Source of the DNA: Candidatus Spongiisociaceae bacterium | Lineage (GTDB): Bacteria > Actinomycetota > Acidimicrobiia > Spongiisociales > Spongiisociaceae | Direction of reading: 5' to 3' | DNA: 64,000 nucleotides | Assembly (NCBI GenBank): GCA_965219685.1 | Contig: CBDCOH010000002.1 | Span: 224,001 to 288,000 of the forward strand | Shown: one piece after another, positions 1,446 to 7,536 of the stretch | Numbering within the stretch: position 1 is the first letter of the stretch | Layout: every line of letters starts with the position of its first letter | Notes under the pieces: model-generated | Told to the model about the DNA's origin: nothing | The model's database searches: none | What the model saw: the letters and a program-made list of their open reading frames with translations, nothing else | Position numbers and translations under genes: made by a program

Positions 1446-2945
1446 GTGCGGAAACGGTCCATGTTATGGAGGGCCGCAAAGGGCACCTGGGCTGTGTCAA
1501 ACGCGGCGGGGACCGGCATCGCCAACGCTGTTAACAATCGCATGACGGTCGGTGCACGGCAAGGAATTCTCGGTCCCTGGGATCCGGCGCCGCCGCCGCG
1601 GGCAGCACGACAGGGTGGTCTGTGGGACTACCGAGGAGTAGCGAAACCCGGCGACATCGGCCCGGTCCAGTCCGGGTTTCCTCTCGGCCTGTATCGAGAG
1701 CCGAAACGTTGGGTTGCTAGGAAACCCATCCGGATCCCGCCGCAGGTCGTTAACGAACACACCGCCGTTCTCGGCCCTACCCGGTCCGGCAAGACCGCCT
1801 CGGTTATCGCCCCATGGATCTACCAGGCTCTCGCACTCGGGTACACGGTTGTAGCGTCCGACGTCAAGGGCGGTGATGATCTGCTGGCAGAAGTCAAACG
1901 CTACAGCGCCCACACCGGCCCTCTCGGAGCACCGGTCATCAAGTGGGACTACACCGATCCGAGTCGTTCCGTATCGTGGAACTGGATCGCCACTCTCCAA
2001 ACAGACAGCCAGATCAACGCAGCGGTCGAGGCCATCTGCGGTAGGCCGTCTCCCACCGACCCGAACAAGTTCTTCCATCAGTCAGCAATCAAGTACCTGC
2101 GAGGGTTGCTCCAGCTAGCCCCGACCCTGCCCGGTAATACAACACTTAGCAGCATCCTGTCGGTCCTGAACGACCAAACCCAGCTTGAGGCTCTGATCCA
2201 CGCACGCCAGGGTCATCCTGGCGCGGGTCGGCTAAGGGAACTGGCAGGTCTGAGCGCCGCGGACTTCATCAAGTACACGATGGAGCTCAAAACCCACCTC
2301 GAAGTTCTGGACACCACGGGGTTCGCGGCAGTGACCCGTGGCCGACAGTTCGACTTCGACCTCCTCCGCCGAGACCAGCCTGTGTTGCTCATCGTCAACG
2401 CTCCGGTATCGGACGGTCAATTAGCGGATGCCGCGTCGGGGCTGTTCTTCGGCCAGTTCACCCAACAAGCGCTGACAGGGTTCGGCACCGTACAACGGCC
2501 GATCCTGTTGGCCCTCGATGAGGCCGCCCGCCTACAAACAAGAATCAATCTCGGCTCTACCCTGTCGCTTATCGCCGGATATGGAATCAGCGTGCTCCTA
2601 GCAGCCCAGGACGTGTCCCAGTTCGACGACGATTCCAGAGACGAAATACTCTCCAACTGTGGGACGATGGTATGTCTACCCCGCGTATCCAAGAGTACGA
2701 GTGAGTATTTTGTGGGTCGGCTTGGTGAGACTCGGGTTGAGACGGTCTCGCGGACGATGTCGACTGGTCGTTTCCAGCGGGGACAGTCTTGGACGCGTAC
2801 GACGGAGCGGTCGGTGGTGCTCGGGCATCGTGAGATCGCTTCGCCCCCGTCCCGGTTTGGTTCTTGGTCGGCGACGGTGCATGCTCCCACGATCGCTACG
2901 GCACCTATCCTGGTAGATCTGACTCGCCGCGATCTCGTACGATAG
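1446..2945 (+). CDS. VirD4/TraG/TraD-like coupling-protein ATPase
   Basis: Walker A GPTRSGKT, SDVKG, WNW...FFHQSA, Walker B LALDEAARL, AAQDVSQ, ILSNCGT and EYFVGRLGE are typical of TraG-D_C. No obvious N-terminal TM helices. Confidence 0.85.
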   Translation: MRKRSMLWRAAKGTWAVSNAAGTGIANAVNNRMTVGARQGILGPWDPAPPPRAARQGGLWDYRGVAKPGDIGPVQSGFPLGLYREPKRWVARKPIRIPPQVVNEHTAVLGPTRSGKTASVIAPWIYQALALGYTVVASDVKGGDDLLAEVKRYSAHTGPLGAPVIKWDYTDPSRSVSWNWIATLQTDSQINAAVEAICGRPSPTDPNKFFHQSAIKYLRGLLQLAPTLPGNTTLSSILSVLNDQTQLEALIHARQGHPGAGRLRELAGLSAADFIKYTMELKTHLEVLDTTGFAAVTRGRQFDFDLLRRDQPVLLIVNAPVSDGQLADAASGLFFGQFTQQALTGFGTVQRPILLALDEAARLQTRINLGSTLSLIAGYGISVLLAAQDVSQFDDDSRDEILSNCGTMVCLPRVSKSTSEYFVGRLGETRVETVSRTMSTGRFQRGQSWTRTTERSVVLGHREIASPPSRFGSWSATVHAPTIATAPILVDLTRRDLVR

Positions 2946-4012
2946 GCCGACCGGTATAGGTTCGATAGTACGGTGCGGGCGCGTGGTAATTATCGTGTAG
3001 TTGATCTCGGTCAACTGGTCCGGGTAGCTGCAGGCGGCCAGGGCGTGGTGTATGACGCGCCTGGGGTGAGGTTGCCTTACGCGTACACTTTCGTATTCAA
3101 ACAGTACAGACCCAACGTACGTGCCAGTCTCGATGTGTCGGTGCTCGAGTCGATGCCTGCCTACCTTGCGGCTCTACCCACGATCGAAGGTTCGGAACTT
3201 CTGGAGCGTGCTGCGTGGCCGTGTCGGCTGGTTGAAGACGCCGGTGCGGTTGTCGGGTTCGTCATGCCGACCATACCCTCCGAGTTCTACATCAACATTC
3301 ACAAGGCGAAAGGCTTGTCCAGAACAGTTGGCGAGTTCCAACACCTCCTAAACAGCCCCAGCTTCCTGGCGCGACGCCAGATCCCAATCACTGACCAGCA
3401 CCGTTACCAGCTGCTAGCCGAAACAGCCCATGCTCTCAGTATCTTCCACCGGCACAGCATCGCAGTCGGTGACCTTTCCCCCAAGAACCTGCTGTTCTCG
3501 CTCCACCCACACACCAGGGTGTACTTTATCGACTGCGACGCAATGCGACTGCAAGGCCGATCAGTAACCAAACAAGTCGAGACACCGGAATGGGAAGTAA
3601 GAGCTGTAAACCCCAACGAAGAACTCGCCACCCCAAAATCAGACAGCTACAAACTCGGGCTGCTCGCCCTCCGACTCCTCGCAGGCGACCAACAAACCCG
3701 TAACCCCACCAACCTTCCCCGCGCCGTGCCAGCACCGATCCGTCAGCTAATCAAACGAAGCCTGTCCCCTAACCCCACCCGCCGGCCCAACCATACCGAA
3801 TGGGACAAACCCCTACGCACCGCCGCGGCCCATGCCAGCACCAAACCACCAAAGCGACCGGCCCCCACAACACAGAAACCAACCACATCGCCCACACCCC
3901 GACCACAGCCAATACCACGGCACCAGTGGCCCCCACCCACACACGCACCACCCCTACCACACCCGACCCCACCTCCTACACCACAACCAACAACACCACC
4001 CCACCCAACCAA
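2708..4012 (+). repeat. Left arm of 1,305-bp inverted repeat (VirD4 3' end + kinase domain + Pro linker)
   Basis: Reverse complement of 6232-7536. Paired coordinates sum to 10244 at both ends and at the kinase starts. One synonymous mismatch seen at 2732/7512 (ACT/ACA). Confidence 0.95.
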
Positions 4013-5822: not shown

Positions 5823-7271
5823 TCACCGTCTCAGGGCGAGGGGCGATGCGATTATGGAGATCAGAGATACACAGATCATGAAGCCTATATGGAGGACGAG
5901 GTAGGCGAACTGGTATGGAACGTCCGCCACTATGGGGTCAAGGACATAGTAGCTTATGATCAACGCGATCAAGCCTGTAATACCGTAGTACCACCCGCTC
6001 TCGAACTCTTCTACCGACGTACAGCGTCTACTTCTTAGACATATTAGGTTCCATGCCAACATGGATGTGCACATGGAAACACCGAAGAGAATAGCCAACC
6101 AAGCTAGACCTGCTATAAGACCAATCAGAGCGTTGCCTATAAATTGCGCGGTTGCCACGAGGATCGGACCGAGAAGGCCTAGAGTGTTGAGCAGGAGTTG
6201 CCGTTTTACCCGTGGGTAAATGGTCTGTTTTTTGGTTGGGTGGGGTGGTGTTGTTGGTTGTGGTGTAGGAGGTGGGGTCGGGTGTGGTAGGGGTGGTGCG
6301 TGTGTGGGTGGGGGCCACTGGTGCCGTGGTATTGGCTGTGGTCGGGGTGTGGGCGATGTGGTTGGTTTCTGTGTTGTGGGGGCCGGTCGCTTTGGTGGTT
6401 TGGTGCTGGCATGGGCCGCGGCGGTGCGTAGGGGTTTGTCCCATTCGGTATGGTTGGGCCGGCGGGTGGGGTTAGGGGACAGGCTTCGTTTGATTAGCTG
6501 ACGGATCGGTGCTGGCACGGCGCGGGGAAGGTTGGTGGGGTTACGGGTTTGTTGGTCGCCTGCGAGGAGTCGGAGGGCGAGCAGCCCGAGTTTGTAGCTG
6601 TCTGATTTTGGGGTGGCGAGTTCTTCGTTGGGGTTTACAGCTCTTACTTCCCATTCCGGTGTCTCGACTTGTTTGGTTACTGATCGGCCTTGCAGTCGCA
6701 TTGCGTCGCAGTCGATAAAGTACACCCTGGTGTGTGGGTGGAGCGAGAACAGCAGGTTCTTGGGGGAAAGGTCACCGACTGCGATGCTGTGCCGGTGGAA
6801 GATACTGAGAGCATGGGCTGTTTCGGCTAGCAGCTGGTAACGGTGCTGGTCAGTGATTGGGATCTGGCGTCGCGCCAGGAAGCTGGGGCTGTTTAGGAGG
6901 TGTTGGAACTCGCCAACTGTTCTGGACAAGCCTTTCGCCTTGTGAATGTTGATGTAGAACTCGGAGGGTATGGTCGGCATGACGAACCCGACAACCGCAC
7001 CGGCGTCTTCAACCAGCCGACACGGCCACGCAGCACGCTCCAGAAGTTCCGAACCTTCGATCGTGGGTAGAGCCGCAAGGTAGGCAGGCATCGACTCGAG
7101 CACCGACACATCGAGACTGGCACGTACGTTGGGTCTGTACTGTTTGAATACGAAAGTGTACGCGTAAGGCAACCTCACCCCAGGCGCGTCATACACCACG
7201 CCCTGGCCGCCTGCAGCTACCCGGACCAGTTGACCGAGATCAACTACACGATAATTACCACGCGCCCGCAC
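5823..7271 (-). CDS. YegI-like Ser/Thr kinase copy B with a multi-TM (about 4 helices) C-terminus
   Basis: Identical to copy A through PPHPTK, followed by about 135 aa of hydrophobic segments. Confidence 0.85.
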   Translation of the reverse strand: MRARGNYRVVDLGQLVRVAAGGQGVVYDAPGVRLPYAYTFVFKQYRPNVRASLDVSVLESMPAYLAALPTIEGSELLERAAWPCRLVEDAGAVVGFVMPTIPSEFYINIHKAKGLSRTVGEFQHLLNSPSFLARRQIPITDQHRYQLLAETAHALSIFHRHSIAVGDLSPKNLLFSLHPHTRVYFIDCDAMRLQGRSVTKQVETPEWEVRAVNPNEELATPKSDSYKLGLLALRLLAGDQQTRNPTNLPRAVPAPIRQLIKRSLSPNPTRRPNHTEWDKPLRTAAAHASTKPPKRPAPTTQKPTTSPTPRPQPIPRHQWPPPTHAPPLPHPTPPPTPQPTTPPHPTKKQTIYPRVKRQLLLNTLGLLGPILVATAQFIGNALIGLIAGLAWLAILFGVSMCTSMLAWNLICLRSRRCTSVEEFESGWYYGITGLIALIISYYVLDPIVADVPYQFAYLVLHIGFMICVSLISIIASPLALRR

Positions 7272-7536
7272 CGTACTATCGAACCTATACCGGTCGGCCT
7301 ATCGTACGAGATCGCGGCGAGTCAGATCTACCAGGATAGGTGCCGTAGCGATCGTGGGAGCATGCACCGTCGCCGACCAAGAACCAAACCGGGACGGGGG
7401 CGAAGCGATCTCACGATGCCCGAGCACCACCGACCGCTCCGTCGTACGCGTCCAAGACTGTCCCCGCTGGAAACGACCAGTCGACATCGTCCGCGAGACC
7501 GTCTCAACCCGTGTCTCACCAAGCCGACCCACAAAA
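6232..7536 (-). repeat. Right arm of 1,305-bp inverted repeat
   Basis: Encodes the same kinase N-terminal sequence as the left arm, up to PPHPTK. Confidence 0.95.
7299..7532 (-). pseudogene. Duplicated C-terminal 77-aa fragment of the VirD4-like gene
   Basis: Matches the C-terminus of 1446-2945 and lies inside the inverted repeat arm. Confidence 0.85.

Follow-up and report, generated by a model that had tools for sequence, protein, structure and literature searches.

Two kinase genes with unrelated C-terminal tails share a near-identical inverted module beside a putative TerY-P-type operon in a Spongiisociaceae bacterium

Introduction

Inversions that underlie phase variation have been described for surface antigens, for tail fibres, and for the specificity subunits of restriction systems. 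In the phage Mu G segment and the R64 shufflon, site-specific inversion swaps the C termini of proteins by means of short inverted sites, a dedicated invertase, and a constant part present in a single copy. In the sap locus of Campylobacter fetus, inversion is RecA dependent, occurs between conserved 5' regions, and serves a single promoter. Multiple sapA and sapB copies at that locus are described in PMC4943207, and intragenic invertons in 10.1101/2023.03.11.532203. Here we analyze a locus in which two kinase genes, kinase A and kinase B, lie tail to tail and share a 1.3-kb inverted module. It lies in a 64,000-nucleotide stretch (the window) of a Candidatus Spongiisociaceae bacterium genome (GCA_965219685.1, contig CBDCOH010000002.1, positions 224,001 to 288,000); coordinates without a prefix refer to the window.

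Two further systems are relevant to the gene content of the locus. In PMC10542128, the TerY-P triad combines a vWA protein of the TerY type with a PP2C phosphatase and a Ser/Thr kinase, and the kinases presented there carry a C-terminal zinc ribbon or OB fold. The MADS defense system is given as mad1 to mad8 in 10.1101/2023.03.30.534895. A preliminary description of the window, made from its letters alone, had proposed that recombination between the repeat arms flips the spacer and exchanges the C-terminal sensor of the operon-linked kinase. We instead favor, at a probability of roughly 0.55, a recently homogenized pair of paralogous receptor kinases, for which a RecA-mediated flip would be a possible, unselected by-product.

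Results

A repeat search of positions 1-12000 detected one inverted pair, with arms at 2696-4012 and 6232-7548 separated by 2,219 nt. Arm copies occur exactly twice in the genome, which comprises two contigs totaling 4.42 Mb (the window corresponds to C2:224001-288000). The features of the pair and of the genes it contains are as follows.

2708-4012, no strand: left arm of the inverted repeat, with VirD4-like codons 421-499, a 27-nt gap, and kinase codons 1-347
6232-7536, no strand: right arm of the inverted repeat, from the repeat search and base check
2973-5015, plus strand: kinase A open reading frame (ORF) as it stands, 680 amino acids, with kinase domain, Pro-rich linker, one transmembrane helix (residues 369-395), and PD40 blades; cut short by a frameshift
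4314-5029, plus strand: 132-bp unit repeated 5.4 times in tandem, with one PD40 blade encoded per unit; no base differs among units 2-4
4924-5725, plus strand: rest of tail A in a shifted frame (ORF 4868-5725), encoding the final PD40 blade, then a helical region and an Excalibur-like module at the end
5726-5822, no strand: 97-bp gap between the convergent stop codons, spanned by read-derived contig 5000-6261
5823-7271, minus strand: kinase B, 482 amino acids, with kinase domain and linker identical to those of kinase A, then a 135-residue tail B with about four hydrophobic helices
7299-7548, minus strand: VirD4-like 3'-end remnant of about 80 codons, lacking the N-terminal part, with a stop codon directly upstream
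7549-7916, no strand: unique, probably non-coding DNA of about 370 bp, from the right arm to the probable start of an FN3/SLH gene (GTG at 7917, GGAGG upstream, signal-peptide-like start)

Base-by-base comparison of the arms located four mismatches, at 2698, 2703, 2707, and 2732. The core block (2708-4012 against 6232-7536) spans 1,305 bp and contains only the mismatch at 2732/7512, while the other three lie in a ragged outer extension to 2696/7548; all four are thus confined to the outer 37 bp, and the remaining inner 1,280 bp matches throughout. Arm similarity breaks off sharply at both ends. The single-nucleotide polymorphism (SNP) at 2732/7512 is synonymous, reading ACT or ACA in the VirD4-like frame, and both copies translate to GRLGETRVETV. 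Repeat length, the 2,219-bp spacer, and this synonymous SNP agree to the base with the preliminary description. Arm divergence (0.08%) is far smaller than that from a related strain (∼1.5 to 4%), so the last homogenization of the arms appears to have been recent.

Each arm contains the last 79 codons of the VirD4-like gene, followed by the gap and by the kinase codons up to and including the Pro-rich linker. The arm ends in frame at TTPPHPTK, beyond which the proteins are unrelated, beginning with RSTSGT in kinase A and KQTIYP in kinase B. The boundary had been placed earlier at the end of the linker (PPHPTK), and we observed 347 identical residues followed by divergence. The intact VirD4-like gene continues from the left arm only, and the right-arm copy is the remnant behind a stop codon; the left arm alone is in an intact operon, as had been noted.

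Tail A was previously taken to be one continuous C terminus composed of a transmembrane helix, PD40 repeats, a helical domain, and Excalibur. The transmembrane, PD40 (Pfam, E = 4.1e-43), and helical parts were recovered here; the continuous frame was not. Unit 5 of the array lacks one base, at 4923, and is otherwise identical to units 2-4. This 1-bp deletion, which the preliminary description had missed, stops the kinase A frame at 5015, so that the helical and Excalibur-like part is readable solely in the frame of ORF 4868-5725. The deletion, as read from the assembly, lies outside any homopolymer. At 15.6 bits (PF05901, E = 0.021), the Excalibur match falls short of its cut-off, which is 22. 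The last 61 residues of tail A are nevertheless 77% identical to the C terminus of P0013, an 828-amino-acid kinase of the same family. As a separate observation, the 132-bp array is either a propeller amplified very recently from one blade or an array miscounted by the assembler.

Tail B had been described as a multi-transmembrane bundle, in agreement with the approximately four hydrophobic helices found by hydropathy scan. It has one homologue cluster (P0005) among 1.84 billion representatives. P0005 has the same architecture of kinase, Pro-rich linker, and tail B, with 43% identity in the tail and 58% overall, which argues that the kinase-tail B combination is an old gene rather than a read-through product. 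A search of 29 genomes of the family and 401 of the order, together with a genome-contig scan, did not turn up the genome encoding P0005. Since tail B has a homologue in P0005 and the tail A end module recurs in P0013, both tails are, judging from these homologues, real and old modules of this kinase family. Considered as a whole, the earlier observations on the repeat, its boundaries, tail B, and the left-arm operon hold, that of tail A as one frame does not, and Excalibur is a below-threshold match.

We compared the kinase with relatives in 31 metagenome loci and 2 genome loci. The best metagenome match to the kinase module was 57% identical, and hence no close relative was available among the 31 loci for a comparison of orientation. 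C termini in the family are highly diverse and include WD40/PD40, YVTN/NHL propellers, cyclophilin, and SH3. Comparison of related genomes for the same kinase with different tails, as the preliminary description had suggested, did reveal such tails: three genomes of the same genus carry vWA, PP2C, and kinase genes with a single kinase, other tails, and neither the VirD4-like gene nor the 182-amino-acid gene described below. The triad order was also seen in many of the 31 metagenome loci.

More than one kinase was present in four of the loci (L016, L027, L041, and L052). L016 contains three kinases in tandem, and L041 contains a convergent pair. In L027, two kinases are 84% identical in DNA across 1,006 bp, and their proteins are 72% identical as far as the transmembrane helix, after which the tails are unrelated. 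L052, from an unrelated, uncultured Actinomycetota metagenome-assembled genome, contains two kinases, and 1,251 bp are repeated there in direct orientation at 98.4% identity. The repeated block opens within a PP2C 3' fragment, ∼160 bp before the kinase start, and closes shortly after the linker; the tails are only ∼85% identical. The first kinase copy is frameshifted just beyond the linker. Because a block of this kind is near-identical in L052, where the direct orientation makes inversion impossible, the identity of the arms in our locus argues less for a switch. The L052 pattern would instead support repeated rounds of duplication or gene conversion that end at the linker. We also observed that L052:7385-11863 forms a tandem array whose unit consists of the PP2C 3' fragment, the kinase, and an NHL-like propeller tail; no full PP2C or vWA gene was detected by tblastn with the window proteins in this 20.6-kb locus.

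The frameshifted first copy of L052 bears on whether the pair described here is a plain recent duplication in decay, with kinase A already broken and no role beyond redundancy. The deletion at 4923 is located outside a homopolymer, and L052 likewise pairs a frameshifted kinase with an intact one, as such decay would predict. However, the deletion is known from the assembly alone, and units 2-5 are otherwise identical, so that it would be very young if real. In addition, the two tails are unrelated and both old, a pair that simple duplication cannot yield. We consider decay an improbable account of the locus.

Read evidence consisted of k=31 contigs from two runs (X1 and X4) of one sample; such contigs confirm junctions and do not phase flank with tail across the 1.3-kb repeat. 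In four runs of this sample, 94 to 98% of the words of the locus stretch were present. Contig 1500-2762 leads from the left flank into the arm and ends 30 nt beyond the SNP, and contig 7482-8317 leads from the right flank into the arm and carries the other SNP allele. Between them, contig 2733-4012 represents the collapsed arm, and contig 3983-4358 in X1 (3983-4121 in X4) leads from the arm into tail A. Contig 5000-6261 runs from the end of tail A across the 97-bp gap and the whole of tail B to 30 nt into the arm. Since the two tails are physically connected and both adjoin the same end of the arm, any molecule with these pieces needs two arms. A misassembled strain bubble does not fit these joins, and a fold-back artefact, against which the preliminary description had also argued, is unlikely.

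Some features of the data could still point to an assembly artefact, either a fold-back or a chimera of two strains with different kinase tails. The assembly is of metagenome-style long reads, the final part of the 30-kb contig C1 duplicates the first 10 kb of that contig, and contig depths are uneven: arm depth (13 and 18.5 in the two runs) is not twice that of the left flank (20.1 and 21.1), although these values are not copy numbers. Depths of the right flank (7.7 and 10.8), the tail A junction (5.5 and 10.5), and tail B (5.6 and 4.8) are equally not copy numbers. Taken together, the depths are inconsistent with two copies throughout and also with a simple model of two strains, and we drew no inference from them. 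Against an artefact, a single contig joins the tail A end, gap, tail B, and arm, and the left and right flanks reach the arm in separate contigs that carry different SNP alleles. Arm depth also approximates the sum of the tail junctions (13 against 5.5 + 5.6 and 18.5 against 10.5 + 4.8, again not copy numbers). Moreover, both tails are coding modules with homologues, as exemplified by P0005 for tail B. Taking these points together, we regard an artefact as very improbable.

A ∼98%-identical strain, detected in a marine metagenome (run X5), has the VirD4-like gene and the junction from linker to tail A. Its right flank diverges before 7701, where coverage is low; the 30-letter loose end of this strain before 7701 had no genome match at up to 3 mismatches.

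To assess the effect of an inversion, we flipped 4013-6231 in silico. Both ORFs remained letter-for-letter unchanged, with the 482-amino-acid kinase B now behind the operon and the 680-amino-acid kinase A on the right. A flip makes no new protein and swaps transcriptional context alone. A six-frame family search detected no serine recombinase (PF00239) genome-wide and four tyrosine recombinase matches (PF00589), none of them in the window and the nearest ∼135 kb away at C2:89376. RecA is encoded at C2:802190 (475.7 bits). With no serine recombinase, distant tyrosine recombinases, and RecA present, any inversion would proceed by homologous recombination. The arm pair is the only inverted repeat of at least 40 bp in 1-12000; shorter sites were not searched.

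These results separate the components of the invertible-switch proposal. The geometry by which a flip places the other tail on the operon kinase is supported in silico with both ORFs intact; the lack of an invertase in the window is borne out, with no serine recombinase genome-wide and the nearest tyrosine recombinase ∼135 kb away; RecA, on which inversion was thought probably to depend, is present; and the locus is not explained as an artefact. In contrast, the shufflon-like label fails in the absence of a dedicated recombinase and of short recombination sites (those below 40 bp were not searched), and arm identity has lost weight as evidence for a switch.

The consequence of a flip would depend on how kinase B is transcribed. 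The interval 7549-7916 is the sole site that could hold a promoter private to kinase B, and with ∼370 bp of unique DNA upstream, kinase B may have its own promoter. A promoter scan of 2600-8400 found no sigma-70-type sites, with 1.9 expected (other promoter types were not covered), and four terminator-like sites, with 3.8 expected.

We searched the genome for other inverted pairs of at least 400 bp and at least 90% identity with arms within 30 kb and detected two. One encodes an IS110-family transposase (Pfam), and the second is one of three identical copies and is not annotated; both were taken for insertion sequences (IS) and rejected as further switches. A larger, ancient inverted duplication of the flanks was also rejected, as the two FN3/SLH genes are just 27% identical over 361 residues.

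These searches bear on the possibility of a selected, RecA-driven flip-flop without a recombinase, in which the right copy would be a silent cassette and inversion of the 2.2-kb spacer would set which sensor tail is produced along with the vWA, PP2C, and VirD4-like proteins. The flip geometry is clean and in frame, RecA is present, and 1.3 kb of perfect homology 2.2 kb apart is a good RecA substrate. A mere gene remnant lies upstream of the right copy, the arms are far more alike than strains are, and the pair is the sole close inverted repeat in the genome that is not an IS. On the other hand, two orientations are not shown by the reads (k=31 contigs are unable to do so), the ∼370 bp of unique DNA could hold a promoter for copy B, and the same homogenized block occurs in direct orientation in L052. 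The operon-linked tail A is also frameshifted in this assembly, and the opposite arrangement was not found in any relative searched. On balance, we consider a selected flip-flop unlikely.

Upstream of kinase A, the following genes are encoded on the same strand.

L001:19130-19855, plus strand: vWA gene, just upstream of the window (PF13519 and PF00092, E = 5.5e-5 and 1.1e-4, just below curated cut-offs)
30-896, plus strand: PP2C phosphatase gene (PF13672, 68.4 bits)
897-1445, plus strand: 182-amino-acid gene, no family assigned, with a weak ParB_N-like motif (E = 0.015, 15.7 bits, below cut-off)
1446-2945, plus strand: VirD4/TraG-family P-loop ATPase, 499 amino acids (PF02534, 80.6 bits; PF12696, 52.1 bits; PF10412, 44 bits)

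The vWA profile score was 24.2 bits (E = 5.5e-5), slightly below the Pfam cut-off of 27, and the 182-amino-acid gene had no Pfam, PADLOC, or NCBIfam match at E ≤ 0.01. The kinase domain scored 25 to 26 bits against Pkinase, short of the 31.7-bit cut-off; relatives conserve the GDLSPKN and FIDCD motifs. Against solved structures, the kinase gave weak Hanks-kinase matches at best (PknA, E = 0.002).

An N-terminal membrane anchor is typical of VirD4/TraG/TraD coupling proteins. The VirD4-like protein contains the coupling-protein ATPase domain (PF02534, PF12696, and PF10412), and a hydropathy scan detected no hydrophobic segment before residue 369. It had no match among plasmids at E = 1e-20 and none among solved structures. 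Type IV secretion system (T4SS) genes were not among the annotated neighbors (vWA, PP2C, kinase, and SLH/FN3/CAP/RCC1 genes), the window ORFs having been scanned in part. Relatives of the VirD4-like protein number ∼60, at 30 to 69% identity. Six of these match kinase relatives in both source and contig size (4331, 17063, 6689, 7803, 132114, and 17020), from which we infer that a VirD4-like ATPase beside this kinase is a conserved variant. The literature searched contained no paper on a TerY-P variant with a VirD4-like ATPase. The six matches, and the position of the soluble VirD4-like ATPase and the 182-amino-acid gene inside the triad, suggest a TerY-P variant that is conserved and, apparently, undescribed.

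GC content at third codon positions (GC3) is 0.62 in the arm, 0.59 in tail B, and 0.57 at the end of tail A, lower than in the neighboring CAP and RCC1 genes (0.73 to 0.77), which hints at a horizontal origin of the kinase locus. The flanks on both sides (window 7917-16215 and L001:13404-18828) encode large secreted, SLH-anchored proteins with FN3, CAP, Big_12, and RCC1 domains. An IS110-family element lies ∼9 kb upstream of the operon at L001:11861-13379 (C2:215861-217379), and three further genomic copies are ∼95 to 98% identical.

Elsewhere in the genome (G000), positions 20186-30458 of contig C1 (30,458 bp) repeat positions 1-10410 at 99.8 to 100%; C1 is probably a ∼20-kb circular element written one and a half times. 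Contig C2 contains approximately eight adjacent direct repeats of 0.85 to 1.2 kb at 99.7 to 100% (e.g., 1823159-1825230, 938472-940485, and 3242922-3244769), and the one inspected was an internal duplication in a 749-amino-acid ORF.

Discussion

We propose that the two genes encode membrane receptor Ser/Thr kinases that would have one catalytic module and linker in common and differ in their sensor tails. Tail A would combine a transmembrane helix and a PD40 propeller with a helical part and an end resembling Excalibur, and tail B would be a four-helix membrane bundle. The kinases would be part of a signaling or defense operon of the TerY-P type, with vWA, PP2C, and kinase genes, which in this lineage appears to have gained two genes, one ParB-like and one for a soluble VirD4-like ATPase. 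A recent event of ectopic recombination or gene conversion would then have copied the VirD4 3' end, the kinase, and the linker from one copy to the other; we infer both the direction and the mechanism of this event. Copying would have halted at the low-complexity Pro-rich linker, where the family appears to swap tails over evolutionary time. RecA-mediated inversion between the arms would be an expected side reaction, altering no protein and changing which tail is linked to the operon. We do not think a dedicated recombinase-driven switch likely.

Several observations weigh against recent homogenization of paralogues as the full account. The kinase arms are the sole close inverted repeat in the genome that is not an IS (at least 400 bp, at least 90% identity, within 30 kb), and their orientation is inverted rather than direct, which is what a reversible swap requires. 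Orientation is not visible in k=31 contigs, with which a high-frequency flip is compatible. The copied tract would have had to cross non-homologous DNA to place the VirD4 fragment upstream of copy B, and such a tract is unusual for simple gene conversion.

A more speculative and, in our view, doubtful possibility is that the locus is a recombinase-free phase switch. RecA inversion would alternate PD40-propeller and membrane-bundle input, the unlinked copy would be kept silent and homogenized, and slippage in the 132-bp array would add a second on/off layer. If this were true, input to a TerY-P/VirD4-like conflict operon would come by turns from a PD40-propeller sensor in the periplasm and from a membrane-bundle sensor. 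The literature searched held no report of an inversion by which a bacterial receptor kinase exchanges its sensor, though no search was aimed at it. Even without flipping, the locus provides a single-base view of sensor-tail exchange at a Pro-rich linker, with the catalytic module constant.

The locus differs from described systems in distinct respects. With T4SS coupling proteins, the VirD4-like protein shares the ATPase domain; an N-terminal anchor and annotated T4SS neighbors were not found. With MADS, similarity is weak: the VirD4-like protein resembles Mad8 (PADLOC mad8, E = 5.8e-8) and the kinase resembles Mad6 (NCBIfam, E = 3e-10, 39 bits). However, the kinase score is far under the MAD6 cut-off of 460 bits, and no methylase or specificity subunit is present among the genes annotated. 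With both matches below threshold, we rejected membership in MADS.

As in TerY-P, vWA, PP2C, and kinase genes are adjacent in one co-directional cluster. In contrast to TerY-P, the tails consist of a transmembrane helix with PD40 blades or a four-helix membrane bundle rather than a zinc ribbon or OB fold, ParB-like and VirD4-like genes intervene between PP2C and kinase, and the kinase is present twice.

The C. fetus sap locus resembles this one in that a shared 5' block (here 1,305 bp) and host RecA are present, so that homologous recombination rather than an invertase would reposition a copy. Its combination of a single promoter with inversion is, by analogy, putative at best for the kinases. 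Moreover, sap cassettes lie head to head around the promoter and encode surface-layer proteins, whereas the genes described here lie tail to tail and encode putative receptor kinases. With the Mu G segment, the R64 shufflon, and intragenic invertons, the locus shares a constant N-terminal part and alternative C termini arranged tail to tail in an invertible stretch, which here is putative. Unlike in those systems, the site here is a 1.3-kb duplicated gene module with no invertase found, and both full-length ORFs exist in either orientation.

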